From assembly GCA_963704655.1 (NCBI GenBank), contig OY969927.1, positions 292,222 to 356,221 of the forward strand: 64,000 nucleotides of DNA, written 5' to 3'. The stretch comes from an uncultured Candidatus Babeliaceae bacterium. Its GTDB lineage: Bacteria > Babelota > Babeliae > Babelales > Babelaceae. A program made the translations under genes and the position numbers. Of this stretch, positions 17,367-37,023 are shown piece after piece; position 1 is the stretch's first letter; each line of letters begins with the position of its first letter. The notes under the pieces are model-generated. The model searched no databases. It saw nothing but the letters and a program-made list of their open reading frames with translations, and had not been told where the DNA came from.

Positions 17367-19136
17367 ATGAAATTTCAAGAAGTAGTATCTGTCTTTGAGT
17401 CTATAGAAAAACTGGCGTCACGTAATGCTATCATGGAACTTCTAGCAGATATTTTCAAGCGCGCTACGCCTCATGAAGCACAAATGCTTACCTATCTTTC
17501 TGTTGGGCAGGTTCGCCCGACCTATTTAGGGAGCCAGTTTAATATTGCCGATAAGACACTTAAAAAAGTTATTCAAGAGATCACTCAGCTTTCACCAACT
17601 GATTTTGCGCATCAAGTAAAAGAGTTTGGTGATCTGGGGACGTTGTTGGCTGCACAAAGTTGGCAACCGAATGAAACCCTGACACTTAAATATGTCTTTG
17701 ATGCTCTTGTCGAGTTACAAACTATCTCTGGCGAAGGTTCACAAGATGTACGTGCACAATTCCTGGAAAAGCTTTTGCGCCAATTGAGTCCTGCCGGCGC
17801 AGGCTTTGTGGTACGTATTATTTTAGGTAAACTGCGTACCGGATTTTCTGATATGACCATTATTGATGCATTCTCTTGGATGCTTGCCGGTAATAAAAGC
17901 CTAAGCAAAGAGATCGAGCATGCCTATAATGTCTGTGCCGATTTGGGGCTTATTGCCTATACGTTAAAAAAAGATGGGCAAGCGGGTCTTGAACATATTC
18001 ATATTACCGTTGGTATACCTATTTTGCCCTCACTTGCAGAACGTTTGGCAACAGCGTTAGAGATTGTCGATAAATTGGGTCACTGTGCCGCACAGCCAAA
18101 ACTTGATGGGTTTAGACTCCAAGTGCATATTGTGCATAGTGACAAAACCAAAGGACCGAAGGTCTATTTTTACTCACGTAATTTAATAAACATGACGCAT
18201 ATGTTTCCCGATCTTACCCGCGCAGCTGAAAAGCTGCCAGTTGAAGATGCGATCTTTGAAGGTGAAGCTATTGTCTTTGACGAGTCAACCGGGGCATTTC
18301 TGCCTTTTCAAGAGACGGTAAAACGTAAACGAAAACATGACATTGAAACTGTTGCACAAGAGTTCCCTTTAAAACTTTTTGTTTTTGATCTTTTGTATCT
18401 TAATGGTGAATCGATGCTCAATAAAGGGCACGAAACCCGCAGAAAAGCAGCGCTTACATTTTTATCAGCTGATCATGCCGATACTCTTTCATTAATCGAT
18501 GAGCGTGAGGTTAACACACCACAAGAGCTTGAAGATTATTTTCTTGAATGCATAGAAGAGGGTCTTGAAGGTTTGGTGGTAAAAAAAATGAATGCGCATT
18601 ATCAGCCGGGTAAACGAAATTTTAATTGGATAAAACTAAAACGTACACAAGAGTCCGGAACGCTTACTGACACTATCGACGCAGTAGTTTTAGGCTATTA
18701 TCATGGCCGCGGAAGACGTGCCGCTTTTGGCATCGGCGCCTTTTTAATTGGCGTTTATGACAAAAAACATGACCGTTTTGAAACACTTGCTAAAGTGGGT
18801 ACCGGGCTTTCCGACCAGGGCTTTAAAGATATAAAAAAAATGTGCGATGGAATAAAAATTGATCATAAACCTTTTAATGTAGTTTGCGCAAAAGAGCTTT
18901 TTCCCGATGTTTGGGTGGTACCAAAGCTTGTGTGGGTAGTTATTGCTGATGAAATTACTCGTTCACCACTGCATACAGCTGGCAAGACAGAACATGAATT
19001 GGGCTATGCCTTACGTTTTCCACGGGCGATTGAATATCGTGCGGATAAAGATGAAAATCAAGCCACTACGGTTGATGAAATAATTCATATGTTTAATAAT
19101 TCGCATCTTAAAAAAGCTGAAAATAGAAAACAGTGA
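17367..19136 (+). CDS. ATP-dependent DNA ligase, three-domain (DBD + adenylation + OB) type
   Basis: Motif I is AQPKLDGFRLQVH (KxDG), III is FEGEAIVFD, IIIa is LFVFDLLYLNG, IV is EGLVVKK and V is NWIKLKR. About 230 aa lie N-terminal to motif I. Confidence 0.9.
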   Translation: MKFQEVVSVFESIEKLASRNAIMELLADIFKRATPHEAQMLTYLSVGQVRPTYLGSQFNIADKTLKKVIQEITQLSPTDFAHQVKEFGDLGTLLAAQSWQPNETLTLKYVFDALVELQTISGEGSQDVRAQFLEKLLRQLSPAGAGFVVRIILGKLRTGFSDMTIIDAFSWMLAGNKSLSKEIEHAYNVCADLGLIAYTLKKDGQAGLEHIHITVGIPILPSLAERLATALEIVDKLGHCAAQPKLDGFRLQVHIVHSDKTKGPKVYFYSRNLINMTHMFPDLTRAAEKLPVEDAIFEGEAIVFDESTGAFLPFQETVKRKRKHDIETVAQEFPLKLFVFDLLYLNGESMLNKGHETRRKAALTFLSADHADTLSLIDEREVNTPQELEDYFLECIEEGLEGLVVKKMNAHYQPGKRNFNWIKLKRTQESGTLTDTIDAVVLGYYHGRGRRAAFGIGAFLIGVYDKKHDRFETLAKVGTGLSDQGFKDIKKMCDGIKIDHKPFNVVCAKELFPDVWVVPKLVWVVIADEITRSPLHTAGKTEHELGYALRFPRAIEYRADKDENQATTVDEIIHMFNNSHLKKAENRKQ

Positions 19137-21095: not shown

Positions 21096-22550
21096 TTACT
21101 CACCAGTTCTTTTTGCCTGAACCTTTCCCGTTCCAAAAAGCCTTTGGAATAGAGTTTTTTCCTTTTTCTCTTCTTCCTCTTGCTCTTGCTCAGGCTCAAG
21201 GTTTGCTTGTGAAGATGATGCTGATGTTTTTGCCGGCTTACGCTCAGGTTCATGGCCAGCGAGTCTCGATGTAACACGTTCATAACTCTGAGTTGAAGCA
21301 ATGTTTTTGCGACTTTTAATTATTGCATTTTTTTGTGCTTGACTCATAAGACCTTCAAGTATAGCCTTTTCAAATTCATCCCCAGAAAGCCTTAAGGCCT
21401 TTTGAGCATGACCAATTGCAAGAGCATATTCCTCTTTATTAAAATATATCTTTGCTAATTCAGACTCTACATAAAAGTTCTTATCAGTTTTTAATGTAGC
21501 ATCTTTAAGTATAAGAAACACTTCGTCCTCAATGTCTTTTTGTGAGCGTTGTGACTTATTTTCACGTATTTCGCGAACTCTTATTGCATAAGATTCATTT
21601 TTAAGTGCACCAGACAATTCCAGAGCCTGTGTTTTTAAATGTTCAGGTGCCAATGGTATTGCATAATCTATATATTTTTTTGCTAAATCCAAGTTCCCGT
21701 TTTCATAATATAATTTTGCTAAATTATACTCTACATTATAAAGGGAATGGTTAGTTCTTTTACTCGCTTGCAAAAGCAACTGCAAAGCTTCATTCTTTAA
21801 GCTAAGGCGCTTTGTTACATCATTTTCTTGCTCAGCATTACCTAGAATGATTAATGCTTGCGATGCAAGATCAAGAGCCTCTTTATCCCAAATCTCTTTG
21901 GCTTTTCCTTTGCCACGAGCAGCTTCTTTGGCTAATTGAGCACGATATAGCTTTTCTTTGCTTGCTAACCATTTTTTATGTTTTGGCTCCAAGTCTAAAG
22001 AATAACGCGTACCAGATAAATTTTTATATTTCCCATCTTTTATAATATCAAGTAAAATTTGTGCAAATGTAGTAGTATCCTCTTTTTGCAACTGTGCAAG
22101 CAGAAAAAGCTCATCATAACATTTAACTATTTTGAAAGAATATACTTTTACACTTTCTGGATCTTGCTCTTGGCCTTTTTGATAATATTCCTTGACAGCT
22201 TCAGCTGCTTTAATTTTTGCAATATACCCAGGAATACTATTTGTGTGCGCCTCAGCAGCCTGCTTTAACGTTTGCAAGGCCTCAGTTTTTCTATTTGCTT
22301 TATTAAGAGCTAAAGCATTTTCATAAAGAAGCTCAGGCTCTTGCTTTTGTGCTGGTATAAACATACGGTTACCACTGCTTGAACTGGCAACAGTTTTTTG
22401 TGTTACTACAGGCATTCGGCTACTACTACTACTACTACTTGAACCTGCTTGACGATAATCACCTAAAAGATCTAAATCGAACTCACCGGCAAAAGCTGGT
22501 GCACTAGCATATAACGCTAGCAGATATACTTTATTTTTCATATTCTTCAT
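21096..22550 (-). CDS. secreted TPR-repeat protein with poly-Ser tract and acidic C-terminus
   Basis: AAGGAG lies 6 nt before the ATG at 22550, giving MKNMKNKVYLLALYASAPAFA. TPR-like units include YNLAKLYYENGNLDLAKKYIDYAI and LAKIYFNKEEYALAIGHAQKAL. An S8 run is also present. Confidence 0.75.
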   Translation of the reverse strand: MKNMKNKVYLLALYASAPAFAGEFDLDLLGDYRQAGSSSSSSSSRMPVVTQKTVASSSSGNRMFIPAQKQEPELLYENALALNKANRKTEALQTLKQAAEAHTNSIPGYIAKIKAAEAVKEYYQKGQEQDPESVKVYSFKIVKCYDELFLLAQLQKEDTTTFAQILLDIIKDGKYKNLSGTRYSLDLEPKHKKWLASKEKLYRAQLAKEAARGKGKAKEIWDKEALDLASQALIILGNAEQENDVTKRLSLKNEALQLLLQASKRTNHSLYNVEYNLAKLYYENGNLDLAKKYIDYAIPLAPEHLKTQALELSGALKNESYAIRVREIRENKSQRSQKDIEDEVFLILKDATLKTDKNFYVESELAKIYFNKEEYALAIGHAQKALRLSGDEFEKAILEGLMSQAQKNAIIKSRKNIASTQSYERVTSRLAGHEPERKPAKTSASSSQANLEPEQEQEEEEKKEKTLFQRLFGTGKVQAKRTGE

Positions 22551-22683
22551 AACACTCTCCTTAATGGCCATATAATATCCTATTTATTCACTCTATTTCT
22601 CTATTTTTTTCAGCTTAAACAAAGCGTAAACGCAGAGTCAACAATTTCAAATATATATTTATAGAAATTCCCCTAATACCTTT

Positions 22684-25600
22684 CTATGCCACCAACTTCT
22701 CTATTTTTGTTTGAAGATCAGCAATTTGCTCCTGCATAGTCGCAATTGTTTCCTTATAACATATTTCTAACGTCTCTAAACGTTTTCTATAGTCAAGTAA
22801 CATTGCACGATCTTTTTGCAGCTCATTAAGCATCATCAAAGGGATATACTGATATTGCACTGTTTGAGGCTGTCCATAAGCATCCTTAATAACAATGCCA
22901 GGATAGATTTCTTCAACCTCTTCAGCAATAAGACCATATTCTAGATGATCTTCATAACCATCCCAAATATAATTAAATGTTACCGGGCGTAGCTTATGCA
23001 GATCTTCTGTAATATTATCCATATCTTGAATATTTTTCTTAACACGTCGCGTTGATGCTGTTGTACCAAGCTTTCCATTAGACCCTATGCTAACTGCTGC
23101 TCCCCCTGTGGTATAGGTCTGTCCAAAGATACCTTGAATATAACAAGCACCCGAGCCCGCACCATACAGAGCTCCTATACGAATCGTATCACTTTCAGCT
23201 GTGGATGTTGTTATTGCACCAGCATATACGTTGGCACCAATATAAATATTACCCGTACCTGTCAATAAATTTGTTCCAGCATTATAACCAATAGCAACAT
23301 TATTTGTGCCAGTAGTTAAAGCAGCAAGTGCATCGGCGCCAATTGCGGTGTTATTGCCCCCATAGGTGATCGTGCCACTCAATTTAGTAAGTGCATAACA
23401 TCCGACAGCAACGTTATTGACACTTGCAGTATTTGCAGCAAGTGTTTGGTGCCCAATAGCAACGTTAGATGTGCCGGTGGTGTTTGCATTTAATGCATAA
23501 TACCCAACAGCGGTATTTTGAATGCCAGTAGTAGCATTTGCTAATGCACCTGAACCAACTGCGGTGAGCTGACTTGCTGTACTATTTGCCAGAGCATTTG
23601 TACCAATTGCTGTATTATCATTGCCACTAATATTAATGGTTAATGCTTCATTTCCAAGCGCCACATTGTTTGACCCAATGGTATTTGCATCTAATACTTG
23701 GTAACCGATACCAACGTTTGCCGTGCCTGTGGTATTAAATTGTAACACGCCGGTTCCAATACCAGTTTGCTGGCCGCCAGTATAGTTTGCGCTTGATAAT
23801 GCGTTATAACCAATAGCAATATTATCACCAAGTATACTTGCTCCGGAAAGTGCAAATGCGCCGATGGCAATATTGTCAAAGTTATTTATAGTTTTAGCAT
23901 TTGCAAGTGCTTGATAACCAATTGCAACGTTTGATGTTCCGGTTGTATTTGCATTAAGCGCATAATACCCCTCAGCATGATTTTGTACACCACTCGTGTT
24001 ATTTTGCAATGCACCAGTACCAATAGCAATCTGCTGACCCTTATTATAGTTTGCGCTTGATAATGCGTTATAACCAATTGCTATATTATCACCAAGCACT
24101 GCAGTTCCGGTTAATGTAAATGCGCCAATGGCAATATTGTCAAAGTTATTAATTGTTCTTGCATTTGCAAGCGCTTGGTAACCAATTGCAATATTTGAAG
24201 TTCCGGTGGTATTTAAGTTTAATGCATTGAAACCAACTGCGGTATTTTGAATGCCAGTAGTAGCATTTGCTAATGCACCTGAACCAACTGCGGTGAGCCG
24301 ACTTGCGGTGCTATTTGCCAGAGCATTTGTACCAATTGCCGTATTATCATTGCCACTAATATTAATGGTTAATGCTTCATTTCCAAGCGCCACATTGTTT
24401 GACCCAATGGTATTTGCATCTAATACTTGGTAACCGATACCAACGTTTGCCGTGCCAGTGGTGTTAAACTGTAACACGCCCGTCCCAATAGCAGTCTGCT
24501 GGCCCTTTGTGTAGTTTGCGCTTGATAATGCGTTATAACCAATTGCGATATTATCACCTAAAATAGATGCCCCAGAAAGCGTATTTGCACCGATAGCAAT
24601 ATTATCAAAGTTATTTGCAGTGTTAGCATTTGCAAGCGCTTGGTAACCAAGTGCGGTGTTATTGAACCCAGTAATATTAGCATTTAATGCATAATAACCA
24701 ACGGCAACATTTTGTGCGCCGGTGGTATTATTGAATAATGCACCAGAACCTATTCCAACCAACGAGCTTGTTTGGTTAGTTGATAAAGCCTGGTTACCAA
24801 CTGCGGTATTGTCTGAACCAACAGCCGCATTGTTAAGTGTTAAATTTCCGATGGCAGTATTATTGTTTGAAAATTGTGATAATGACAGCGCATTGAATCC
24901 AACAGCAGTATTATTAGACCCTGATGTATTTGATTGTAAGGTACTATAACCCACGCCAACGTTTTGAGTGCCTAAGGTATTATATTGTAAAGCTCCAGAC
25001 CCCACAGCAGTAAGGGCATTGCCAACTGAAGCCGTGAGAAGAGCATTATAACCAACTGCAGTGTTATTAAAGCCAATTATGTTACCAGAAAGTGAATAAG
25101 AACCTATAGCTGTATTGCTATTGCCAGTTGTGTTACCAGAAAGTGAATAGTAACCAACAGCTGTGTTGCTTGCGCCCGTATTATTGCTGCCCATACTCGA
25201 ATTACCAACAGCCACATTGAACGCTGAATTGCCAAAAACAAATGCATTATAACCAATAGCAACGTTTCCGTATGAAAAAGATCCATTCTGTAAGGTATTT
25301 GAGCCTATAGCGACATTTTCACCAGCTTGAATTATATTACTTAATGCATTGGAGCCTATAGCAATATTATTTGCCCCGCTAGGTATACCAAGAAACGGTA
25401 GGTTATAGTTTAACTTACTCAGTGCATAAGCGCCTATTGCAATATTATTTACCCCACTTGTATTTGTTTGTAATGCATCATAACCAATTGCGATGTTTCC
25501 AGTACCTGTAGTATTTGCCTGTAACGCGCCCGTTCCAATTGCTATCTGCTGCCCGCCGGTATAACCCGACGCAGAAAGCGCATTTGTTCCAACAGCGATG

Positions 25601-28600
25601 TTATCACCTAAAATAGATGCGCCAGAAAGCGTATTTGCCCCAATTGCAATATTGTCAAAATTATTAATACCTGCAGCATTTGCTAATGCTTGATAGCCTA
25701 ATGCAACGTTTGATGTGCCGGTTGTATTTGAGCCAAGAGCATTATACCCAAGAGCAGTATTTTGAATACCTGTAGTATTCGAACCAAGCGCATAATACCC
25801 AACCGCTGTTAAATTATTTGCACGATTGCTATAAAGACTTTGGTACCCAACTCCAACGTTATTACTTACATTCTTGGCAGCACTAGCGCCATTTCCAAAT
25901 AATGCACTAGTACCAAGAGCAACATTATAAGATCCAGAAGTATTTGTTCCTAGCGAAGAGATACCCATAGCAACGTTATTAACGCCTGTAGTGTTATTAG
26001 TCATGCTACTGAAACCTATTGCAATATTAAAACCTATAGTATCGCTTGGTAATGTAAGCGCCCCGATTGCTATATCTTGACCATTTATTGGCGTGGCATT
26101 CTGCATTGCTAAACTGCCAATAGCAATATTAGCTCCTTGACCATTATCTTTTTGCAATGCACTGTATCCTATAGCAATATCTGAAGCAGCAGCATTTAAT
26201 GGTGTAGCATTTTGCATTGCACCAGAACCAATCGCCACATTTTGACCAATTGCACCATTGAAAGTCGCTAATGCATTATTGCCAAGTGCAACATTATCAC
26301 TAGATGTCATATTAGATTTTGCAGCTTGATATCCTACTGCAGTATTATTTTTTCCCGTTGTATTTGCATTAAGTGCTTGATTACCTAATGCGACATTTAA
26401 TGTGCCGGTGAGGGTATTATTATTTCCTGCATTCAAGCCGATAATGGTATTACCATATGTTGGCGCAAAGACAAAGCCCTGACCAATATTGCAACCGCCG
26501 ACAGAACTGTAATTAATTAAACTATTACCGGTGAGTGTGACTGTTGTTGCTTCAAAGCTGCCGGTGCTATCACGTAAAATGAGTGTTAATGCGGTGTCAC
26601 ATGATGTTGCCGTGTTAATAAGATTTGAGTATGAGCCTATGCCAAGTTGGCCGCTGCTGGTAACAACCACCGGTTCACCCACTTGTAAGTTATTGTAAAT
26701 GCCAGCAACATATGCAGCAGTTTGCGTTCCTTGTGTACCGATATACGTAACGTTACTATCAGTTGAATTACCTTGATTTGCAATATAAATACTATTTGAA
26801 GTGCTTGTTCCTGCGTTTACGCCAGCTTCATAACCAAGTGCAACATTGTAAGTTCCCGTTATTATGTTAGATAAAGTTGCCTCCCCAACAGCTACATTAA
26901 ACCCTGCACTATCTAGTCCTAATGAATTATATCCAATAGCAACGTCATGAGAAGCCTGTGCGCTGTTCATCGCATTAATTCCAAGCGCGGTATTATAATA
27001 ACCAGCTGTTGTTGCGTACATTGCTTGCGAACCAACTGCAGTATTATAATTACCAATCATATTAGCATTGAGTGCCAAAGTGCCAATTGCGGTATTTGAA
27101 CCGCCGGATGTATTTGCTGATAACGCAAAAGCACCAAATGCGCTGTTTCCTAACCCTGAGTTATTGTCTTGTAAAGCAAATGTGCCAACTGCTGTATTAT
27201 CATATCCGGTAGTATTTGCACTTAATGCTTGTGAGCCAACGGCAACGTTGTAGCCAGAGCTATCATGAGCAAGTGCTTGATAGCCAATTGCAACAGAGTT
27301 TCCAAAATATGGATTAGCCGAGGCCATTGCGTTGGTACCGATAGCAACGTTGTTGCTCTTATTAGTATTGGTTGCAAGCGTGCCAAACCCGAGTGCAGTG
27401 TTATTATACCCAGTGATATTGTTTGCAAGCGCTTGATAACCAAGTGCAACATTTGATGTTCCAGTTAAGTTATTACTATTGCCTGCTCCAAGACCAATAA
27501 GGGTATTTTGTTTTGTTGGTGCCCAGACAAAACCAGCGCCTGTATCGCATCCGCCAACAGAGCTATAATTGATTAAGCTGTTGCCCGTGAGTGTGATAGT
27601 GGTTGCTGCAAAGCTGCCCGTGCTGTCGCGCAGCACAAGTGCTAATGCATTGTCACATGATGTTGCGGTGTTAATAAGATTTGAATATGATCCCACACCA
27701 AGTTGTCCGTTGCTGGTAATAACTACCGGTTCACCCACTTGTAAGTTATTGTAAATGCCCGCAACATACGTTTGGGTTTGTCCATTACCAATTTTTATAA
27801 GATTGTTATCTCCTGCAGAGCCAACAACATTTGCTCCTAAGTAGATATTGTTTGATCCTGTAAGGCAATTAAGCCCTGCATAGTAACCTAGGGCAGTATT
27901 AGCATAGCCGCTGTTGTTATAATAGAGTGAATAGTACCCTATCCCGACGTTACTAGTGCCAGTTATGTTAGATTGCAATGCTCTTGAACCAATTGCAACT
28001 TGCTGTTGCCCCTGTGTATTATTAGTGAGGCTATATATACCAATAGCTATATTGTCACCAGAATTACTATTTGCCAGCGTAGATATTCCAATGCCGATGT
28101 TAGAGCTGCCTACAGTATTATTTTGTAATGAATAGTCGCCAATAGCTGTGTTAAATTGCCCAGCGGTATTGTTTGCAAGTGCATAATATCCTGCGGCAAA
28201 GTTATTGGTTCCTGTATTATTTTGTAATGCGTTAGTCCCCAGAGCTATTTGATATGGTCCAGTATTATTTTGTAATGCATTTAAGCCAATGCCGATATTG
28301 TCATGTCCTGAGCTATTAAGCTGTAACGCATTATAACCAATGGCTATATTACTTGTCCCTGTGGCAATTAATTGTAAAGCATTTTGTCCAATAGCGATAT
28401 TTCCGCTACCCGTTAATGTGTTGTTATTACCAGCATTTAATCCAATAATAGTATTATTATGTGTTGGCGCAAAGATAAAGCCTTGGCCAGTATTGCATCC
28501 GCCGAGCGAGCTGTAATTAATTAAGCTCTTTCCCGAAAGCGCAACTGTTGTAGCTTCAAATGTGCCCGTGTTATCACGCAAGACAAGGGTTGATGGAGTG

Positions 28601-31600
28601 TCGCATGCTGTTGCAGCCGTAAGTAAGGTATATGTTGGAAGCGTTGACCAAGAAAGTTGTGCTGGATTATTTCCATCTGTTGTCAATAATTGACCAAAAG
28701 CACCTTGGTTAATAGGCATTTGTAAGGTGTACGTAAACGCATATGTTGCAGATGGTGCAGTAATGCCTGCGTAGTTTGTATTACCACTATCGTAAATATT
28801 AAACTGTTTTGCCAGCACGTTATTAAAAAGGTTATTTGGAGCATACCCAAGGTTTGTGCTATTTATTGTGCCACTTGGCATAATATACCGCACTGAGCTG
28901 TTACCCAGCATGACGCTGTTATCAACGAATGCAGCAGCGCCTGCGCCTATGGCCGTTCTATTTTGCGCTGGTTCACCAACATCTGCGCCAGTACCTAGTG
29001 CCGTGTTGTTACTACCAGAAGTTACCGTTAATAATGCCGAATAGCCCACTGCAGTATTAGAACCCCCAAGTACATTAGCGCTTAATGCCGAATAGCCCTC
29101 TGCGGTGTTATAACTTCCAATTACATTGGCGCTTAATGCGTTGTTGCCAACGGCGGTATTATAATTGCCCGATATATTATTTGTTAAGGCAAAACTTCCT
29201 ATTGCAGTATTAATAATTGGTTCTGGTCGTGGGTCAAAAATTGAATCTCCAAAAAACTGATAAGCAATTGCATTCATCGATGCTTGATACCCAATGGCAA
29301 CATTATATTGCATCGGATAAGTTCCAGCAAAGATGCCACCATTTACCACCAAATCGGTTCCGGTCATCAATGCCGAAGTTCCTATAGCAACATTAGAAAA
29401 ACCTTGTTGCGTTGATGCTAATGCGCCTGTACCAATAGCGATATTATCTGCTGCGCCATTAAAAATATAAGAGTTATTCTCACCCTCTCCACCTATAAGA
29501 CTTTGTCCAGCAAATGCGCCAATGGCGATATTGTCAAAACCTGCGGTGATACTTGCAAGAGCATCAAAACCAAGTGCAACGTTTGATGTGCCCGTTAAGA
29601 TATTATTATTGCCTGCATTCAAACCAATAAGAGTATTTTGATTTGTTGGCGCAAAGACAAAGCCTTGGCCAGTATTGCATCCGCCAATTGTGCTGTAATT
29701 AATTAAACTGTTTCCCGTGAGTGTGATAGTTGTTGCTGCAAAGCTGCCCGTGCTGTCGCGCAGAACCAGCGACAATATATTGTCGCATGATGTTGCGGTG
29801 TTAATAAGATCTGAATATGTCCCCACACCAAGTCGTCCGCTGCTGGTAACAACTACCGGTTCACCAACAAGTAGAGTGTTATAAATGCCCGCAACATATG
29901 CAGCAGTTTGTGTGCCTTGTGTACCGATATACGTGACGTTATTATCTGTTGAATTACCTAAATTTGATATATAAATACTATTAGAAGTATTTGACCCTGC
30001 ATTCTGACCCGCTGCATAGCCAAGTGCCACATTCGAGTTTCCCGATGTTATAAGCTCTATTGCATTAACTCCGACTGCGGTATTATATTGACCTGTAGTT
30101 AAGTCTAGCAATGCGTTCGTTCCAACTGCTGTGTTATAACTTCCTCCAATATTATTATTAAGTGCTGAAGCGCCAATGCCAGTATTTTGTACACCAGTTG
30201 TATTAGTTGTCAGTGCATTAAAACCAAGGGCCGTATTGAAATTACCAGTAGTGTTAGCTTGTAATGCAAACGTACCAACTGCGGCATTATATGGGCTTAA
30301 ATTTGCGCTTAATGCTTGCGAACCAACGGCAACGTTGTAGCCAAAACTATCATGGGCAAGTGCTTGATAGCCAATTGCAACAGAGTTTCCTGAAAGGGGA
30401 TTAGCCGAGGCCATAGCCTGGGTGCCAATAGCAACGTTGTTGCTCTTATTAACATTGGTTGCAAGCGTGCCAAATCCGAGTGCCGTGTTATTGCTGCCAG
30501 ACGTATTGAGTGCCAATGCATTAAACCCAAGCGCAAGATTACCTGTGCCGGTGATATTGATATTATTATTTCCAGCATTTAAACCAATAATGGTATTACC
30601 CTTTGTTGGCGCAAAGACAAAGCCAGCGCCGGTATTGCAACCGCCCACCGTGCTGTAATTAATTAAGCTATTGCCAGTTAACGTTATTGTTGTTGCTGCA
30701 AAGCTGCCCGTGCTGTCGCGCAGCACAAGTGTTGATGCATTATCGCATGATGTTGCAGTGTTAAGTAAATTAAGTTGAGCACTATTAGTTACCGTGGTAA
30801 TCCAGCTTAATTGTGCAGGTGCGCCACCATTTGTGGATAATACTTGGCCATTCGCGCCATGTGATGTTGGTAAAATAAGGCCATATGATGAAGAAAAGCT
30901 TGAGGGCACGGTAAATGTTATGTTACCGGTGCTATTTCCTTGGAATACTAAACCACTTTGTGCACGGATATTAAAGGTATCATTTGATGTTGATGCAAAT
31001 GATGAGCCTTGTGAATCGGCAAAGACAAATGCACCATTGTTTGCAGCATTTGCTTGTTGGCCAAGTGCCACAGAATATTCCCCATTTGCTTGGTTGTTAT
31101 AACCGCCGGGTACTGTTGCATATTGTCCGCCTGCTGCGTTGCCATTACCGCCACCAACTGTTCCAGCATAACCCGCAGAATTATTCTGGCCACCACCAAC
31201 TGTTGCATATGAACTTGATGTGCTATTATTATAGCCACCGGTTATAACCGCGTAATAGCCATTTAGATTATTCGACAAACCCCCGCCGATAATGGACCAA
31301 TTTCCTAGTGAACTTCCTAGAGTATTATTTTGGCCACCAACAACAACAGAATAATCACTATTTGCGGTATTGGTATATCCAGCGCCTACAAATGAGCTGT
31401 TACCAGATGCGGTGTTATAAGTTCCACCGCCAACAACAGCATAATAATTAGATGCGTTATTATAATAGCCCCCTGTTATAACCGAGTAATCACTATTTGC
31501 GGTATTGGTATATCCAGCGCCTACAAATGAACTGTTACCAGATGCGGTGTTATAATTTCCACCGCCAACAACAGCATAATAATTAGATGCTTTATTTTGA

Positions 31601-34600
31601 TAACCACCAACAACTGTGGCGTAATCATCTGTAGCATTGTGGTTTTGGCCACCGCCTATAAATGAGCTGTTTCCTGCAGCCTTATTGTTAAAACCACCAA
31701 CGACAATTCCATAGGTATTTGATGCGGTGTTGGCAGATCCGCCAACAACTGTGGCGAAAGTATTTGAAGCACTATTTCCTTCGCCGCCCACAATAACAGC
31801 TTGGTCGCCTGTTGTATTGGAGTTGCCGATGCCACCGCCAATAAATGAGCTATTACCTGCAGCGTTATTGCCAAAACCACCAACAACAACTCCGTAGGTA
31901 TTAGAAGCAGTGTTGCTTTGGCCACCAAGTATAGCAGCGTTAGTATTTGATGCGTGGTTATACTGTCCACCGCCAACAACAGCATAATTACCAGATGCTG
32001 TATTTTCATAACCGCCAGTTACCGATGAGTAATCACCTGAAGCAGTGTGGTGTTCACCATTACCGACAAATGAGCTATTTCCTGTAGAGTTATTATAACT
32101 GCCACCAACAACAATTCCATAGGAATTTGATGCAGTGTTATTTTGTCCACCAAGTATAGCAGCGTAACTATTTGATGCGGTGTTGCTTTGTCCGCCTGCA
32201 ATAACAGCGTAAGAACCGGATGCAACATCAGACCCGCTTGCATTAATTTGTAAATCAACAGCATATGTTCCGCGTGTGTTACCACTTGCAGATGCTTGTA
32301 ATGCGCGAGAACCTTGCGGAGCTACTGTAAGTGCTGAAATGCTACCACAGATTTGTCCTGCAGGTGAAAGGGTAGGGTCATTTACTGTTAAACATCCATC
32401 TGCTGTTATGTTGTATGCGGCAAAGCTGCCTGTATTGTCCCGTAACACAAGTGTGTTTGGAATATCTGCGCTTGTTGCGGTGTAAATCCAATTTAATTCT
32501 GTTGAATTAGTTACCGTTGTTATCCAGCCAAGCTGTTCTGTTTTTCCTGGTCCTGAAACGACCCCAAGAACTTGATACAATCCAGGGGCAGCGTTAGTTG
32601 GCAATATTAATGTGTACGTATTAGTTAGATTTCCAGCGGTTAATGACACTGAACCAGCGCCTGTTGAGCCTTGGAAAACTTGATATCCTGTTACGGTAAT
32701 ATTTGTTGCCGCAAAGCTTCCCGTACTATCGCGTTCTACTATTGTTCCTTGAATATCAAGTGGTGTTGCATTATAAACACCGTTATAAGCAAACTCAAAG
32801 TTTTGATAGTCAATGCCAGAAATTAAACCAACGCTGGTTGTGCCAATTAAGTTACCTGCGTAGGGAATGTTCAATTCATGTGTTCCAGGTTCAATGTCAT
32901 TCCATACAACAAGTGTTAAATTACCGGTATTTGTAGTTAAAAATTGTTCTGGTGCTGTTAAGCCATTAAGACTTTCAATGCCACCTGTTAATGTTGCAAC
33001 CCAGCTTAATTGCCCAGAGCCGTTATTAAACAATGCTTGATTTGGTCCAGTAGCCTGTGCTGCTGGCAATATTAATGTGTACGTATTAGTTAGATTTCCA
33101 GCGGTTAATGACACTGAACCAGCGCCTGTTGAGCCTTGGAAAACTTGATATCCTGTTACGGTGATATTGGTTGCTGCGAAGCTTCCCGTACTATCGCGTT
33201 CTACTATTGTTCCTTGAATATCAAGTGGTGTTGCATTATAAACACCGTTATAAGCAAACTCAAAGTTTTGATAGTCAATGCCAGAAATTAAACCAACGCT
33301 GGTTGTGCCAATTAAGTTACCTGCGTAGGGAATGTTCAATTCATGTGTTCCAGGCTCAATGTCATTCCATACAACAAGTGTTAAATTACCGGTATTTGTA
33401 GTTAAAAATTGTTCTGGTGCCGTTAAGCCATTAAGACTTTCAATGCCACCTGTTAATGTTGCAACCCAGCTTAATTGCCCAGAGCCGTTATTAAACAATG
33501 CTTGATTTGGTCCAGTAGCCTGTGCTGCTGGCAATATTAATGTGTACGTATTAGTTAGATTTCCAGCGGTTAATGACACTGAACCAGCGCCTGTTGAGCC
33601 TTCGAATACTTGATATCCTGTTACGGTGATATTGGTTGCTGCAAAGCTTCCAGTACTATCGCGTTCTACTATTGTTCCTTGAATATCAAGTGGTGTTGCA
33701 TTATAAACACCATTATAAGCAAACTCAAAGTTTTGATAATCTTCACCGGTGATTAAACCAACATGGTTATTGTCATCAGGTAAATTACCAGCATATGGGA
33801 TATCTAATTGATGTACGCCAGTTACTGCGTTATCAGTCCAACCAAAGAATGTTTCAGCTGTGTAGGTAGTTAAGAATTGATTTACAACAGTTACACTATT
33901 CAAGCTTTCAATTGCTGAACCAATAACAACGGTCTGCCATGAAAGATTACCGAACCCATCATTAATAAGTGTCTGACTTGAGTTACCCTGTGCTTGTGGA
34001 AGAGTTACACCATAACTTGTTGAAACTGTTGCTGGGCCAGTAATAGAGACAGTACCACTGTTATCTTTTGCTTCAAACGCTACCGTTGTTACCGTTACAG
34101 TTGTTGCTGCAAAGCTGCCGGTAGAATCGCGTAATACGAGTGTTAATGGAATATCTGCGCTTGTTGCAGACAGCACGGTTGAATAGGTTTGTGCAAGTGC
34201 GCATGCAGGAATGCCACAGACAAATGCAACGTGTGTTGCAGTTTGCGTGCCGATGACATCACCATATAATTGTCCGGTAAATGAAGTGGTAGTTATTGTC
34301 CCCACGCCAAGTTGCCCAAGTGAAGTTACTACAACAGGTGAACCGGTTACCGGTGTTCCATAAATACCAGCAACATATGCAGAAGTTTGTGTGCCTTGTG
34401 TGCCAATGCGAATGGTATTTTGGTCACCAGGTGCGCCACCACTGCTTATTAAAATATTATTACTTTCATTAGAAGTATAAGGATAACCAGCATTTAAGCC
34501 CAATGCAATATTATTAACACCTGTTAATACATTACCTAATGCAGAGTGACCAAGTGCAAGGTTTTGTCCACCAACATCTTTAGCAAGTGCGCCGTTACCC

Positions 34601-37023
34601 AGGGCTATATCAAAACCATTTGAAGGAGACGCAGATTGCATAGCTTCATAACCGATAGCGATGTTTGATCCCAAACCGTTATCATTTTGAAGCGCGCTAT
34701 TACCAATAGCAATGTCGGTAGTTGGATTTTGTGTCAAGTTTAATGCAGAATACCCAAGTGCGATATTGCCATTACCATGTAAATTTGCCGCCATTGCATT
34801 GTTGCCGATTGCAGTGTTATTTTCACCTGTGGAATTATTTGTTAAAGCAAAACTGCCCACAGCGGTGTTGATGAAAGGGCTAAATCCACCGTGGCCACCG
34901 ATTATACCCGCTTGAGTATTTGCAAGTGTTTGATACCCAACAGCAACATTAAATACAAGTGGCCCATATACACCACCTGCTGCTATATCAACGGCATTGC
35001 TGAGTGCGCCGCTGCCAAGAGCAACATTGCCAAAGCCGTGCGTTGTTGTTGCAAGTGCGTTTACGCCGATGGCAACGTTTTCTGCGCCACCGATGGCTGT
35101 TATTTGGTTGTCTAAATAATTATAATAGGTAAATTGTGCGCCGCCTTGCAGTGTCTGTGCACTGTTGGCACCAATTGCAACGTTATCACATGCAACTGTT
35201 GCGGTCATGAGCGCATTAAAGCCAAGTGCAACATTGCTTGTGCCGGTAAGTGTATTATTATTGCCTGCATTAAGACCAATAATGGTATTTTGATGTGTCG
35301 GTGCAAAGACGAATCCAGAACCAGTGTCGCATCCGCCAACAGAACTATAATTAATTAAGCTGTTACCAGTAAGAGTAATAGTTGTTGCTGCAAAGCTGCC
35401 GGTGCTGTCACGCAAAACAAGTGTGAGTGCAGAATTACAACTTGTGCCAGTAGCAGTAGATGATGTCCCTACGCCAAGTTGCCCAAGTGAAGTTACTACA
35501 ACAGGTGAACCGGTTACCGGTGTTCCATAAATACCAGCAACATATGCAGAAGTTTGTGTGCCTTGTGTGCCAATGCGAATGGTATTTTGGTCACCAGGTG
35601 CGCCACCACTGCTTATTAAAATATTATTACTTTCATTAGAAGTATAAGGATAACCAGCATTTAAGCCCAATGCAATATTATTAACACCTGTTAATACATT
35701 ACCTAATGCAGAGTGACCAAGTGCAAGGTTTTGTCCACCAACATCTTTAGCAAGTGCGCCGTTACCCAGGGCTATATCAAAACCATTTGAAGGAGACGCA
35801 GATTGCATAGCTTCATAACCGATAGCGATGTTTGATCCCAAACCGTTATCATTTTGAAGCGCGCTATTACCAATAGCAATGTCGGTAGTTGGATTTTGTG
35901 TCAAGTTTAATGCAGAATACCCAAGTGCGATATTGCCATTACCATGTAAATTTGCCGCCATTGCATTGTTGCCGATTGCAGTGTTATTTTCACCTGTGGA
36001 ATTATTTGTTAAAGCAAAACTGCCCACAGCGGTGTTGATGAAAGGGCTAAATCCACCGTGGCCACCGATTATACCCGCTTGAGTATTTGCAAGTGTTTGA
36101 TACCCAACAGCAACATTAAATACAAGTGGCCCATATACACCACCTGCTGCTATATCAACGGCATTGCTGAGTGCGCCGCTGCCAAGAGCAACATTGCCAA
36201 AGCCTTGCGTTGTTGTAGCAAGTGCGTTTATGCCGATGGCAACGTTTTCTGCGCCACCGATGGCTGTTATTTGGTTGTCTAAATAATTATAATAGGTAAA
36301 TTGTGCGCCGCCTTGCAGTGTCTGTGCACTGTTGACACCAATTGCAACGTTATCACATGCAACTGTTGCGGTCATAAGCGCATTAAAGCCAAGTGCAACG
36401 TTGCTTGTGCCGGTAAGTGTATTATTATTGCCTGCATTAAGACCAATAATGGTATTTTGATGTGTTGGTGCAAAGACGAATCCAGAACCAGTGTCGCATC
36501 CGCCAACAGAACTATAATTAATTAAGCTGTTACCAGTAAGAGTAATAGTTGTTGCTGCAAAGCTGCCGGTGCTATCGCGCAAAATGAGTGTGAGTGGCTT
36601 GTCGCATGATGTTGCAGTATATATAAAATTGAGTTGGTTAGAATTTGTCAGTGTTGTGAGCCAGGTTAAGGTGCCAGCATTATCTGCTAATCCTAAAACT
36701 TGGCCCTGAAGCCCTTCTGCCGAGGGTAATACTAATTGATATGACGTTGTTGGTGTGCATGCACGTGTTGGGAGCATTTCTTCTGTGCTTAAATAGTAGC
36801 TTGGTGATTCGGATAAGCTGTTACCATTTTCGTCAAGAATATAGAGTGGTATATAGGTATCGGATAGAATCATATTTTTGTTATGCTCAAGATTTTTATT
36901 AATCGGTTCAAGTGCTTGAGCAAGAATGTGCAAATCATTAAAATTTGTTGACTCTGTTTGCAGTAAATTTGGAAAAAGCCCTATAGAAAGGGCATAGATT
37001 AAGTGATTGTACTTCATATACAT
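22684..37023 (-). CDS. giant fibre protein (4779 aa): concatenated fibre modules, YadA-head-like segment, C-terminal Peptidase_S74 chaperone
   Basis: A single 14,340-nt ORF. At least 5 internal necks (..YVAGIY..VVVTS.GQLGVG..) are each followed by a new collar and cap (TSCD..LVLRDSTGSFAATTITLTGNSLINYS..GGC). The central segment GGQSNTASNSYAAILGGQNNTASNSYGIVVGG has Hep_Hag-like repeats. The protein ends ASTRRVKKNIQDM..GLIAEEVEEIYPG..MMLNELQKD. Confidence 0.9.
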   Translation of the reverse strand: MYMKYNHLIYALSIGLFPNLLQTESTNFNDLHILAQALEPINKNLEHNKNMILSDTYIPLYILDENGNSLSESPSYYLSTEEMLPTRACTPTTSYQLVLPSAEGLQGQVLGLADNAGTLTWLTTLTNSNQLNFIYTATSCDKPLTLILRDSTGSFAATTITLTGNSLINYSSVGGCDTGSGFVFAPTHQNTIIGLNAGNNNTLTGTSNVALGFNALMTATVACDNVAIGVNSAQTLQGGAQFTYYNYLDNQITAIGGAENVAIGINALATTTQGFGNVALGSGALSNAVDIAAGGVYGPLVFNVAVGYQTLANTQAGIIGGHGGFSPFINTAVGSFALTNNSTGENNTAIGNNAMAANLHGNGNIALGYSALNLTQNPTTDIAIGNSALQNDNGLGSNIAIGYEAMQSASPSNGFDIALGNGALAKDVGGQNLALGHSALGNVLTGVNNIALGLNAGYPYTSNESNNILISSGGAPGDQNTIRIGTQGTQTSAYVAGIYGTPVTGSPVVVTSLGQLGVGTSSTATGTSCNSALTLVLRDSTGSFAATTITLTGNSLINYSSVGGCDTGSGFVFAPTHQNTIIGLNAGNNNTLTGTSNVALGFNALMTATVACDNVAIGANSAQTLQGGAQFTYYNYLDNQITAIGGAENVAIGVNALATTTHGFGNVALGSGALSNAVDIAAGGVYGPLVFNVAVGYQTLANTQAGIIGGHGGFSPFINTAVGSFALTNNSTGENNTAIGNNAMAANLHGNGNIALGYSALNLTQNPTTDIAIGNSALQNDNGLGSNIAIGYEAMQSASPSNGFDIALGNGALAKDVGGQNLALGHSALGNVLTGVNNIALGLNAGYPYTSNESNNILISSGGAPGDQNTIRIGTQGTQTSAYVAGIYGTPVTGSPVVVTSLGQLGVGTITTTSFTGQLYGDVIGTQTATHVAFVCGIPACALAQTYSTVLSATSADIPLTLVLRDSTGSFAATTVTVTTVAFEAKDNSGTVSITGPATVSTSYGVTLPQAQGNSSQTLINDGFGNLSWQTVVIGSAIESLNSVTVVNQFLTTYTAETFFGWTDNAVTGVHQLDIPYAGNLPDDNNHVGLITGEDYQNFEFAYNGVYNATPLDIQGTIVERDSTGSFAATNITVTGYQVFEGSTGAGSVSLTAGNLTNTYTLILPAAQATGPNQALFNNGSGQLSWVATLTGGIESLNGLTAPEQFLTTNTGNLTLVVWNDIEPGTHELNIPYAGNLIGTTSVGLISGIDYQNFEFAYNGVYNATPLDIQGTIVERDSTGSFAATNITVTGYQVFQGSTGAGSVSLTAGNLTNTYTLILPAAQATGPNQALFNNGSGQLSWVATLTGGIESLNGLTAPEQFLTTNTGNLTLVVWNDIEPGTHELNIPYAGNLIGTTSVGLISGIDYQNFEFAYNGVYNATPLDIQGTIVERDSTGSFAATNITVTGYQVFQGSTGAGSVSLTAGNLTNTYTLILPTNAAPGLYQVLGVVSGPGKTEQLGWITTVTNSTELNWIYTATSADIPNTLVLRDNTGSFAAYNITADGCLTVNDPTLSPAGQICGSISALTVAPQGSRALQASASGNTRGTYAVDLQINASGSDVASGSYAVIAGGQSNTASNSYAAILGGQNNTASNSYGIVVGGSYNNSTGNSSFVGNGEHHTASGDYSSVTGGYENTASGNYAVVGGGQYNHASNTNAAILGGQSNTASNTYGVVVGGFGNNAAGNSSFIGGGIGNSNTTGDQAVIVGGEGNSASNTFATVVGGSANTASNTYGIVVGGFNNKAAGNSSFIGGGQNHNATDDYATVVGGYQNKASNYYAVVGGGNYNTASGNSSFVGAGYTNTANSDYSVITGGYYNNASNYYAVVGGGTYNTASGNSSFVGAGYTNTANSDYSVVVGGQNNTLGSSLGNWSIIGGGLSNNLNGYYAVITGGYNNSTSSSYATVGGGQNNSAGYAGTVGGGNGNAAGGQYATVPGGYNNQANGEYSVALGQQANAANNGAFVFADSQGSSFASTSNDTFNIRAQSGLVFQGNSTGNITFTVPSSFSSSYGLILPTSHGANGQVLSTNGGAPAQLSWITTVTNSAQLNLLNTATSCDNASTLVLRDSTGSFAATTITLTGNSLINYSTVGGCNTGAGFVFAPTKGNTIIGLNAGNNNINITGTGNLALGFNALALNTSGSNNTALGFGTLATNVNKSNNVAIGTQAMASANPLSGNSVAIGYQALAHDSFGYNVAVGSQALSANLSPYNAAVGTFALQANTTGNFNTALGFNALTTNTTGVQNTGIGASALNNNIGGSYNTAVGTNALLDLTTGQYNTAVGVNAIELITSGNSNVALGYAAGQNAGSNTSNSIYISNLGNSTDNNVTYIGTQGTQTAAYVAGIYNTLLVGEPVVVTSSGRLGVGTYSDLINTATSCDNILSLVLRDSTGSFAATTITLTGNSLINYSTIGGCNTGQGFVFAPTNQNTLIGLNAGNNNILTGTSNVALGFDALASITAGFDNIAIGAFAGQSLIGGEGENNSYIFNGAADNIAIGTGALASTQQGFSNVAIGTSALMTGTDLVVNGGIFAGTYPMQYNVAIGYQASMNAIAYQFFGDSIFDPRPEPIINTAIGSFALTNNISGNYNTAVGNNALSANVIGSYNTAEGYSALSANVLGGSNTAVGYSALLTVTSGSNNTALGTGADVGEPAQNRTAIGAGAAAFVDNSVMLGNSSVRYIMPSGTINSTNLGYAPNNLFNNVLAKQFNIYDSGNTNYAGITAPSATYAFTYTLQMPINQGAFGQLLTTDGNNPAQLSWSTLPTYTLLTAATACDTPSTLVLRDNTGTFEATTVALSGKSLINYSSLGGCNTGQGFIFAPTHNNTIIGLNAGNNNTLTGSGNIAIGQNALQLIATGTSNIAIGYNALQLNSSGHDNIGIGLNALQNNTGPYQIALGTNALQNNTGTNNFAAGYYALANNTAGQFNTAIGDYSLQNNTVGSSNIGIGISTLANSNSGDNIAIGIYSLTNNTQGQQQVAIGSRALQSNITGTSNVGIGYYSLYYNNSGYANTALGYYAGLNCLTGSNNIYLGANVVGSAGDNNLIKIGNGQTQTYVAGIYNNLQVGEPVVITSNGQLGVGSYSNLINTATSCDNALALVLRDSTGSFAATTITLTGNSLINYSSVGGCDTGAGFVWAPTKQNTLIGLGAGNSNNLTGTSNVALGYQALANNITGYNNTALGFGTLATNTNKSNNVAIGTNAMASANPYFGNSVAIGYQALAHDSSGYNVAVGSQALSANTTGYDNTAVGTFALQDNNSGLGNSAFGAFALSANTSGGSNTAIGTLALNANMIGNYNTAVGSQAMYATTAGYYNTALGINAMNSAQASHDVAIGYNSLGLDSAGFNVAVGEATLSNIITGTYNVALGYEAGVNAGTSTSNSIYIANQGNSTDSNVTYIGTQGTQTAAYVAGIYNNLQVGEPVVVTSSGQLGIGSYSNLINTATSCDTALTLILRDSTGSFEATTVTLTGNSLINYSSVGGCNIGQGFVFAPTYGNTIIGLNAGNNNTLTGTLNVALGNQALNANTTGKNNTAVGYQAAKSNMTSSDNVALGNNALATFNGAIGQNVAIGSGAMQNATPLNAAASDIAIGYSALQKDNGQGANIAIGSLAMQNATPINGQDIAIGALTLPSDTIGFNIAIGFSSMTNNTTGVNNVAMGISSLGTNTSGSYNVALGTSALFGNGASAAKNVSNNVGVGYQSLYSNRANNLTAVGYYALGSNTTGIQNTALGYNALGSNTTGTSNVALGYQALANAAGINNFDNIAIGANTLSGASILGDNIAVGTNALSASGYTGGQQIAIGTGALQANTTGTGNIAIGYDALQTNTSGVNNIAIGAYALSKLNYNLPFLGIPSGANNIAIGSNALSNIIQAGENVAIGSNTLQNGSFSYGNVAIGYNAFVFGNSAFNVAVGNSSMGSNNTGASNTAVGYYSLSGNTTGNSNTAIGSYSLSGNIIGFNNTAVGYNALLTASVGNALTAVGSGALQYNTLGTQNVGVGYSTLQSNTSGSNNTAVGFNALSLSQFSNNNTAIGNLTLNNAAVGSDNTAVGNQALSTNQTSSLVGIGSGALFNNTTGAQNVAVGYYALNANITGFNNTALGYQALANANTANNFDNIAIGANTLSGASILGDNIAIGYNALSSANYTKGQQTAIGTGVLQFNTTGTANVGIGYQVLDANTIGSNNVALGNEALTINISGNDNTAIGTNALANSTASRLTAVGSGALANATTGIQNTAVGFNALNLNTTGTSNIAIGYQALANARTINNFDNIAIGAFTLTGTAVLGDNIAIGYNALSSANYNKGQQIAIGTGALQNNTSGVQNHAEGYYALNANTTGTSNVAIGYQALANAKTINNFDNIAIGAFALSGASILGDNIAIGYNALSSANYTGGQQTGIGTGVLQFNTTGTANVGIGYQVLDANTIGSNNVALGNEALTINISGNDNTAIGTNALANSTASQLTAVGSGALANATTGIQNTAVGYYALNANTTGTSNVAIGHQTLAANTASVNNVAVGCYALTKLSGTITYGGNNTAIGADALAALTTGTNNVAIGYNAGTNLLTGTGNIYIGANVYAGAITTSTAESDTIRIGALYGAGSGACYIQGIFGQTYTTGGAAVSIGSNGKLGTTASTRRVKKNIQDMDNITEDLHKLRPVTFNYIWDGYEDHLEYGLIAEEVEEIYPGIVIKDAYGQPQTVQYQYIPLMMLNELQKDRAMLLDYRKRLETLEICYKETIATMQEQIADLQTKIEKLVA
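22687..23055 (-). other. Peptidase_S74-like chaperone domain (giant fibre C-terminus)
   Basis: S-T-R-R-V-K places Ser at 0 and Lys at +5. The domain is ~75% identical in protein to the 56469-56813 domain. Confidence 0.8.
23500..24610 (-). repeat. two ~380-bp near-identical copies spaced 729 bp (approx 23500-23880 and 24229-24609)
   Basis: AATGCCAGTAGTAGCATTTGCTAATGCACCTGAACCAACTGCGGTGAG occurs at 23521 and 24250. The protein block GQQT.IGTGVLQFNTTGTANVGIGYQVLDANTIGSNNVALGNEALTINISGNDNTAIGTNALANSTAS occurs twice. Confidence 0.85.
32590..33750 (-). repeat. ~2.5 tandem copies of a 468-bp (156-aa) unit
   Basis: The anchor GCAAAGCTTCC.GTACTATCGCGTTCTAC occurs at ~32703, ~33171 and ~33639. The unit runs DYQNFEFAYNGVYNATPLDIQGTIVERDSTGSFAATNITVTG...SVGLISGI. 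Boundaries are approximate. Confidence 0.85.
34279..36612 (-). repeat. two tandem near-identical copies of a complete 1167-bp (389-aa) fibre module
   Basis: The antisense ORFs 34712-34915 and 35879-36082 translate identically and are offset by exactly 1167 bp. The protein aa ~138-526 repeats as aa ~527-915. Boundaries are approximate. Confidence 0.9.

Follow-up and report, generated by a model that had tools for sequence, protein, structure and literature searches.

A 14.3-kb cassette-built gene on a Dependentiae chromosome probably encodes a secreted, trimeric surface fibre

The 64,000-nucleotide stretch analysed here (hereafter the window) comes from contig OY969927.1 (positions 292,222 to 356,221; assembly GCA_963704655.1) of an uncultured Candidatus Babeliaceae bacterium. 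It holds an open reading frame (ORF) of 4779 codons at 22684..37023 (-), which runs through 14.3 kb in a single frame without interruption. The product of this gene, referred to below as the giant, is probably a secreted, disulfide-bonded, trimeric surface fibre with which the bacterium attaches to its host, and it probably grew by the duplication and exchange of cassettes. This reading is built on the anatomy of the sequence, the chromosomal context of the gene, the distribution of its family, several tracts of duplication and exchange, and the fold of its Peptidase_S74 (S74) domain.

The giant is a chain of modules that obeys a simple grammar (Table 1). Every cap in the family is preceded by one of three joints, namely a neck, an 'LP' joint (Y.L.LP...G..GQ.L...G..LSW) or a Cys joint (LYGDVIG...VAFVCG.PAC), and is followed by one of three bodies: a collar with a 17-aa-period beta-roll, a 15-aa-period UspA1-like roll, or a small (155-aa) knob. 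This joint-cap-body order is repeated about 12 times in the giant, where the cap motif [LI][VI].RD.TG.F (including the variant IVERDSTGSF) is found 12 times, the collar motif GGC..G.GF seven times and, by regular-expression search, the LP joint before caps seven times (aa 97, 1006, 1162, 1317, 1472, 2049 and 2767). All three joint types, the neck-to-cap joint included, recur in the paralog g832 and in proteins of related genomes. Two cysteines lie exactly 36 aa apart in every cap and collar, and other joints carry Cys pairs too, a feature that fits folding outside the cytoplasm. In Pfam, the cap, collar, neck and 155-aa repeat match no family, Peptidase_S74 being the sole match in the giant, and a profile search of a cassette against PDB sequences gave no match.

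Motif searches bear out what a first-pass annotation of the window had described: complete cassettes of cap, collar, beta-roll and neck follow one another head to tail, with one terminal chaperone. The modular pattern is also visible in a self dot-plot. That annotation had counted at least five internal necks; five are found, conforming to G[TN].GTQT.AYVAGIY...G.PVV[VI]TS.G[QR]LG[VI]G and ending at aa 519, 908, 2401, 3111 and 3463, while a sixth, divergent neck (CYIQGI form) lies directly before the cleavage serine. Four of the five lead directly into a cap, a Cys-paired collar and a new 17-aa-period beta-roll, for example through the junction GQLGIG followed by SYSNLINTATSCD. The second (aa 868-908) leads instead to a Cys joint (VCGIPAC), a collar-less cap and then the 155-aa repeats, so the statement that this happens 'each time' was slightly overstated. 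The repeat reported as three-fold and 156 aa long does show its motif three times (ERDSTGSF at aa 1120, 1275 and 1430, the first copy being more divergent), but its unit is 155 aa: Tandem Repeats Finder gives a period of 465 nt in 2.5 copies at 98%, and blastn an identity of 94.9%. The central block described as YadA-head-like was also recovered, since aa 1728-1999 match the head of the Moraxella adhesin UspA1 (PDB 3pr7; E 1.9e-17, phmmer against PDB). This match has a high composition bias and concerns only one of the roughly 12 modules.

As had been noted, a neck stands before the S74 cleavage serine in three genes of the window (cleavage site marked by a slash): ..GKLGTTA/STRRVK in the giant, ..SQLGTVN/SSRRYK in g832 and ..GQLGTTV/SSRRFK in g51207. 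Searches with the neck joint returned 13 and then 267 proteins, and most of those listed are short (170-298 aa) with an S74 domain; the word-indexed search covered proteins below 300 aa and showed neck relatives, not cap relatives. Among the matches listed, ..NTIRIGTQGTQT..[FY][IV]AGI....G..V.V.S.GQLG abuts SS.R[FY]K, the S74 cleavage site. Because a neck of this kind abuts S74 in most of the listed short proteins of other organisms, the internal necks of the giant are judged to be pre-chaperone elements. A rough tree, built from short segments, groups them with stand-alone pre-S74 necks and not with the terminal neck of their own protein, and in a few proteins outside the family (P0195 and P0172) a neck is followed by a cap or a new roll. 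In single-unit fibres the neck is the element before S74; in the giant it is proposed to act, in addition, as a conserved clamp that links cassettes.

The one terminal chaperone that was said to be left in the giant is the only S74 domain that Pfam finds there (PF13884; aa 4657-4711, 40.2 bits against a cut-off of 22). The spacing of its catalytic dyad is kept (S4657-T-R-R-V-K4662), and the column is nearly invariant in an alignment of 80 sequences. An AlphaFold2 (AF2) monomer model of the C-terminal 220 aa (80 sequences) reached a mean predicted local distance difference test score (pLDDT) of 82.8, with 86-98 across the S74 domain and the long helix. Foldseek matched this model best to the intramolecular chaperone auto-processing (ICA) domain of MyRF, the eukaryotic myelin regulatory factor (7dc3; E 2e-4, probability 1.0), followed by the chaperones of endosialidase (3gw6) and GA-1 (3gud). 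For a full cassette including both of its joints, the AF2 monomer had a mean pLDDT of 50.7, with 70-85 in the roll core and below 50 in the neck and cap. It shows about one short strand per 17 residues in the roll, and Foldseek returned nothing significant for it. Such low values in the neck and cap would be expected if folding needs the trimer, and equally from a shallow alignment.

Table 1. Parts of the giant in the order of translation
Feature	Position in the window (strand)	Residues and remarks
Start region	36763..37023 (-)	aa 1-87; signal-peptide-like segment MKYNHLIYALSIGLFPNLLQTES and short N-terminal domain; probable start nt 37017
First 'LP' joint	36655..36762 (-)	aa 88-123; Y.L.LP...G..GQ.L...G..L[ST]W; also in relatives
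Cassette 1	35467..36654 (-)	aa 124-519; cap, Cys-paired collar, 17-aa-period beta-roll, neck aa 479-519
Cassette 2	34300..35466 (-)	aa 520-908; tandem duplicate of cassette 1 (blastn, dot-plot); neck aa 868-908
Short module	33904..34299 (-)	aa 909-1040; Cys joint LYGDVIG..VAFVCGIPAC (also in g832 and relatives), collar-less cap, LP joint
Three 155-aa repeat units	32509..33903 (-)	aa ~1041-1505; each with LP joint, small domain and cap variant IVERDSTGSF
UspA1/YadA-head-like module	30787..32508 (-)	cap aa 1525, Cys pair 1544/1559, 15-aa-period GG-repeat head aa ~1580-1999
Cassette aa 2080-2401	29821..30786 (-)	cap, collar, beta-roll, neck aa 2361-2401
Cassette aa 2402-2795	28639..29820 (-)	cap, collar, beta-roll; terminates in an LP joint, not a neck
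Cassette aa 2796-3111	27691..28638 (-)	cap, collar, beta-roll, neck aa 3073-3111
Cassette aa 3112-3463	26635..27690 (-)	cap, collar, beta-roll, neck aa 3423-3463; AF2 monomer roll core pLDDT 70-85
Last cassette	23056..26634 (-)	aa 3464-4656; cap, collar, ~1080-aa beta-roll with internal repeats, terminal neck aa ~4611-4656 (CYIQGI form)
Peptidase_S74 chaperone	22891..23055 (-)	aa 4657-4711; Ser4657 and Lys4662, STRRVK
C-terminal long helix, coiled-coil part of the chaperone	22687..22890 (-)	aa 4712-4779; AF2 helix at model residues 165-219, pLDDT 94-98

Five further genes of the family lie in the window: g832 (1962 aa), g47156 (420 aa), g48450 (909 aa), g51207 (1869 aa) and g56813 (1822 aa). 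The six genes total 35.3 kb. They fill 55% of the window and make up about 2.7% of a 1.3-Mb genome. All five paralogs begin with signal peptides; the N-terminus of the giant is signal-peptide-like and homologous to those of its positional orthologs at two other loci (L008 and L003), both of which have clear signal peptides. The giant, g832 and g51207 end in S74, and g47156, g48450 and g56813 end in a shared tip. In these three (47156-48418, 48450-51179 and 56813-62281, all on the + strand) the tip is a common C-terminal globular domain of about 150 aa (..C.NEWRV.VP...LDYW.YHY.F..RR), which has no matching Pfam family and is also present in L012 and P0023/P0044. By analogy with the non-S74 fibres of Bdellovibrio discussed below, it is probably a binding tip. 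The gene g51207 (51207-56816, +) carries two Peptidase_S74 domains. Its internal copy (~nt 54213-54380, aa ~1003-1058; 32.3 bits; GRLGTAASSARYK) keeps the Ser..Lys pair, lies directly after a neck and is followed by a new beta-roll without the long helix. This could be an intermediate of fusion, or g51207 could be a polyprotein of two fibres that cleaves itself.

Beyond the window, an alignment of the cap and collar was scanned against one genome per species and gave 12 loci, seven in metagenome-assembled genomes (MAGs) titled Candidatus Dependentiae or Babeliaceae and five in MAGs titled only 'bacterium', at 60-77% identity to the query except for the weakest (L014). In that scan the domain was thus found only in what appear to be Dependentiae-type genomes, and none was found in viral contigs. 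The domain is rare: a search of 1.84 billion representative proteins gave 218 relatives at E ≤ 0.001, of which 20 reach E ≤ 1e-30, the giant itself being the top match with 34 matched stretches. A Babeliaceae MAG (MFD04780; L004 974-11890) holds an open frame of at least 3639 aa with five caps, two necks and two UspA1-type modules. This is a second giant of the family, and its lack of a proper start and of an S74 end is probably due to frameshifts.

The surroundings of the gene are those of a bacterial chromosome. The window encodes SerRS, HemN, SecD, tRNA-Leu, tRNA-Met, an ATP-dependent DNA ligase, PyrF, RsmG and a MatE transporter, along with GatA, MreC, RecJ, TatD and a D-Ala-D-Ala dipeptidase. 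The flanks of the cap-and-collar loci hold these housekeeping genes in the same order, the annotated flank genes being 69-93% identical (aa) in the Babeliaceae genome JAIETV01 and 55-89% in the Dependentiae MAG bog_1370. Because of this synteny with Dependentiae and Babeliaceae MAGs, in which the genes around the giant are 66-93% identical at the amino-acid level, the window is assigned to a Dependentiae (TM6/Babelota) chromosome on the strength of its sequence. The members of this phylum in culture live as obligate intracellular parasites of protists, and their genomes measure about 1-1.3 Mb (PMC6561590, PMC4776705). In the comparison with JAIETV01, fibre orthologs are 35-48% identical whereas neighbouring housekeeping genes reach 78-93%, and such fast divergence of the fibres fits a role in host contact.

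A Shine-Dalgarno-like AAAGAG is better placed upstream of the second ATG (Met3, nt 37017), and because of this spacing the product probably starts at Met3 and has 4777 aa; the gene call in a public protein collection likewise starts there. Scans for promoters and terminators found nothing above chance. The same collection contains an identical 4777-aa product on a contig of 1,298,077 bp, reached through a representative-protein search and a cluster look-up. In a second assembly (ENA ERZ25039454, contig_14340, 1,307,222 bp; locus L015) there is an ORF of equal length with one substitution, N4480H, and the two assemblies are 99.90% identical across 18.3 kb of the region. All but one of their 17 mismatches lie in the flanks of about 4 kb and not in the 14.3-kb gene. 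In the second assembly the adjoining MatE gene is broken by a frameshift into pieces of 310 and 137 aa (L015 1-1144). These flank mismatches and the split gene are possibly assembly errors of the L015 record. Since MatE is split in the second assembly only, the two are separate and not the same sequence; they represent nearly the same strain. The names and sizes of the contigs hint at assemblies from long reads.

Growth mainly by cassette duplication and exchange, and not by six separate fusions, is the best account of how such a gene arose, as far as its sequence can tell. Cassettes 1 and 2 form a tandem duplicate of 1141 nt at 98.7% identity, joint included (blastn); the 155-aa units are about 95-98% identical, and the last roll contains internal duplicates at 85%. 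The joint GQLG[VI]G.YS.LINTATSCD is nearly the same at four sites in the giant and in g832 and similar in other genomes, with the neck-to-cap joint recurring in g832 and at least nine related proteins from other Dependentiae genomes. Among the cassettes of the giant, identity is 78% in the cap and collar, 67% in the neck and 48% in the roll. The joints are thus better conserved than the rolls, whereas fusion scars in decay would be expected to show the opposite. As the neck-to-cap joint recurs in g832 and relatives, lies within the duplicate of cassettes 1 and 2 and is best conserved, it seems to be old and to have spread by cassette duplication.

Relatives of the giant point the same way. Its positional ortholog in JAIETV01 (L008), beside RsmG, is complete at 1834 aa, with three cassettes, its own S74 and a homologous signal peptide and N-terminus. 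An ancestor with roughly three cassettes, like this ortholog, is therefore proposed. In addition, the last cassette of the giant (24668-25668) and g832 (3274-4271) share a tract of 1002 nt at 92% identity, compared with about 70-75% in the background. The two genes are in opposite orientation, with some 20 kb between the copies, and the tract suggests that gene conversion or the transfer of a cassette took place recently between these paralogs. Another tract of 869 nt is 79% identical to g51207. In JAIETV01 a g832-type fibre gene stands in tandem downstream of the 1834-aa ortholog (L008 14500-15843, L010 1-5823; the contig ends inside its repeats), whereas in the window g832 lies about 16 kb from the giant on the opposite strand, which indicates that members of the family move around. 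A fusion of these two tandem genes (A and B) was considered as the origin of the giant and rejected: gene B has a g832-type N-terminus, no such segment is present in the giant, and B is for that reason not a missing half of it.

The first-pass annotation had explained the giant as six or more tail-fibre genes fused together. Such a serial head-to-tail fusion of at least six independent S74-ended genes, losing upstream chaperones and downstream N-terminal regions, could draw on the neck that abuts S74 in most single-unit relatives, on the closeness of the internal necks to stand-alone necks rather than to the terminal one, and on the tandem genes A and B. The internal S74 of g51207, kept after a neck like a fusion caught midway, also indicates that fusion of S74-ended units occurs in the family. 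However, the joint shared by four sites, g832 and other genomes suggests one old element that was copied, the first two cassettes are a recent duplicate with that joint included, no remnant of a signal peptide, N-terminal domain or S74 was found inside the giant, gene B is g832-like and not part of it, and the ortholog has three cassettes. These points make serial fusion an unlikely origin. The annotation had also suggested a reservoir of modules for recombination, and here the exchange part gains some support from the 92% tract. The further idea that the giant is a store from which cassettes are copied into expressed fibre genes for antigenic or host-range variation, its full-length product being of little import, may point to both tracts, which exceed the background, and to the many paralogs close by. 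Nevertheless, there is a single clear exchange tract, and the gene has its own ribosome-binding site and start, a signal-peptide-like N-terminus orthologous to those of expressed-type genes, an intact S74 dyad and 14.3 kb without any stop, which would be unexpected in a silent donor. A store of this kind is accordingly considered improbable, more so than serial fusion.

Two other explanations concern what the gene is, rather than how it grew, and both are far less credible. An artefact of assembly, with repeats collapsed or joined, or a decaying pseudogene might be suspected from the richness of the gene in repeats, from the contigs of relatives, which often end inside such genes, and from an exact-sequence position look-up of the giant that gave no match. 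Against this, contigs of 1.298 and 1.307 Mb in two assemblies give the same 4777-aa ORF with one substitution, an open frame of 4779 codons is not credible by chance at 40% GC, and the stops or frameshifts hidden by assembly, which had been named in advance as what could break the frame, did not appear: both ORFs are intact and of the same length. An artefact or pseudogene is therefore very improbable. Still slightly less probable, and contradicted by the data at hand, is a phage or prophage tail-fibre gene, the identity implied by the first-pass annotation. PHROG tail-spike and virion-protein families do match the beta-roll repeats, and more than 400 proteins of viral contigs are related to the roll-neck-S74 unit, many of them 38-45% identical. 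Yet these relatives are single-unit proteins (median ORF 638 aa, one S74 each), the cap-and-collar domain is absent from viral contigs, and a megablast of the gene against 50,697 phage records gave no match. No phage gene was found in the 64-kb window, and both flanks hold housekeeping genes in an order conserved among Dependentiae genomes. Nor was a virion-attachment-type N-terminus found, as the giant, its orthologs and all paralogs start in a signal-peptide-like manner.

The steps by which the giant would become the surface fibre favoured here, as well as its length and its part in host attachment, may be pictured as follows. The protein would be exported by the Sec pathway, after which three chains would be put in register and folded from the C-terminus to the N-terminus, starting at the single S74 chaperone. 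The chaperone would then cleave itself at Ser4657, releasing the S74 domain together with its long helix. What remains on the cell would be a homotrimeric fibre of three chains of about 4,600 residues each, in which the joints are conserved and the faces of the rolls vary. Its length is estimated at about 100-150 nm, given that some 170 solenoid turns (of the 17-aa and 15-aa types) at about 4.8 Å each would make up about 80 nm, with caps, necks and knobs extra. Such a fibre would most likely act at the cell surface, together with the S74-ended and tip-ended paralogs, in the contact with host cells or in uptake by them, and its variable beta-roll faces would provide diversity in binding or antigenicity.

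Several observations weigh against this picture. Pfam detects no autotransporter barrel in the giant, no secretion genes that could carry it across the outer membrane lie beside it, and its signal peptide is weaker than those of the paralogs. A single C-terminal chaperone would have to bring about 4,600 residues into register. With a monomer pLDDT below 50 in the neck and cap, both the fold of these parts and the trimer state are inferred. As the two assemblies are near-identical in strain, their agreement is weak evidence for long-term upkeep of the full length. Finally, the Dependentiae papers examined make no mention of surface fibres, and none was found that connects the phylum with tail fibres, chaperones of the endosialidase type or surface fibres.

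Among described systems, the MAT (mosaic adhesive trimer) family of Bdellovibrio bacteriovorus (Caulton et al. 2024) comes closest; it comprises 13 S74 and eight non-S74 members. The proteins begin with a signal peptide and a conserved start and form a trimeric fibre of beta-helical type. Cleavage by S74 is proven for them, and they are displayed on the cell surface (PMC10769870). The likeness extends to chromosomal genes with many paralogs in a bacterium that lives off other cells, to a signal peptide with S74 and non-S74 (tip-domain) subfamilies, as found among the six genes of the window, and to a relation with phage fibres. However, MATs are 600-1,500 aa long and form one fibre unit, whereas the giant has about 12 modules and five internal pre-chaperone necks. 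The host of its bacterium is a protist and the prey of the MAT-bearing bacterium is another bacterium. Surface display is a feature of MATs and is predicted for the giant. The N-terminal region is short here and varies between paralogs; MATs have a conserved, beta-rich N-domain of about 130 aa after the signal peptide. No sequence match to solved MAT tips was found.

Other known systems share parts of the design. Phage fibres and spikes with a chaperone (K1F endosialidase, the T5 pb1 L-shaped fibre and GA-1 gp12; PF13884) have the terminal S74, the Ser-Lys dyad and the long helix, and the likeness includes the roll-neck-S74 unit of viral-contig proteins. Unlike them, the giant is not phage-encoded, has a signal peptide in place of a virion-attachment domain, and is 7.5 times the median length of its viral relatives, quite apart from the cap and collar that viral contigs lack. 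Trimeric autotransporter adhesins (UspA1, YadA, BadA and AtaA) are likewise very long modular fibres in which head-like beta-rolls alternate with connectors. The giant contains UspA1/YadA-like head repeats, and some database sources name its short relatives 'trimeric autotransporter adhesin'. Nevertheless, it has no C-terminal anchor barrel of the YadA type (Pfam finds S74 only) and its C-terminus consists of S74 and a helix, so its trimerisation would rely on S74 and not on a barrel. It also lacks long coiled-coil stalks, and the polarity of attachment would be reversed, with the N-terminus of the giant proximal. MyRF, the best structural match of the C-terminal model, is another cellular reuse of the phage chaperone. 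It is a membrane-bound transcription factor and not a fibre, and the likeness is confined to the chaperone domain.

What is new in the giant is the lineage, the lineage-specific cap and collar, pre-chaperone necks used again and again as internal joints, and a size of 4779 aa in a 1.3-Mb genome; otherwise it broadens a kind of system known from Bdellovibrio. In the Dependentiae genome literature examined, type IV pili are the only candidates for entry that are mentioned. Already within this window, a fast-evolving family of secreted fibres takes up about 2.7% of a 1.3-Mb genome, and it provides concrete candidates for the recognition and entry of protist hosts. The giant is also a natural test case for whether a single intramolecular chaperone can fold many serial fibre units and whether a neck that normally needs S74 can function alone, with g51207 and its internal S74 displaying an intermediate state. 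A more far-reaching proposal combines these ideas. The necks would be chaperone-free clamps, so that one S74 could register a 12-module trimer of about 4,600 residues per chain; parts of phage fibres joined to the lineage-specific cap and collar would catch protist hosts or get Dependentiae swallowed, as a cellular counterpart of giant-virus fibrils; and g51207 would be a self-cleaving two-fibre polyprotein. In this full form the proposal is speculative and rather doubtful.

Some neighbouring genes and relatives deserve mention in their own right. A family-2 glycosyltransferase (6844-7737, +) lies directly downstream of g832, and a secreted TPR-repeat protein containing a poly-Ser stretch (21096-22571, -) lies 112 bp downstream of the giant; the latter gene is present in L015 and was not found in L010. 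Both products could be partners of the fibres. Roll-neck-S74 relatives also occur in IMG/VR contigs named GVMAG (L021, L027, L033, L070, L079 and L081), that is, in giant-virus-labelled bins and contigs of 0.4-0.58 Mb, and this means either that giant viruses of protists have such fibres or that these bins contain bacterial DNA. The ATP-dependent DNA ligase of the window (17367-19136, +) is of the three-domain type (DNA_ligase_A_N, _M and _C) that is typical of archaea and eukaryotes, and it is kept at 78-82% identity in two related Dependentiae MAGs.

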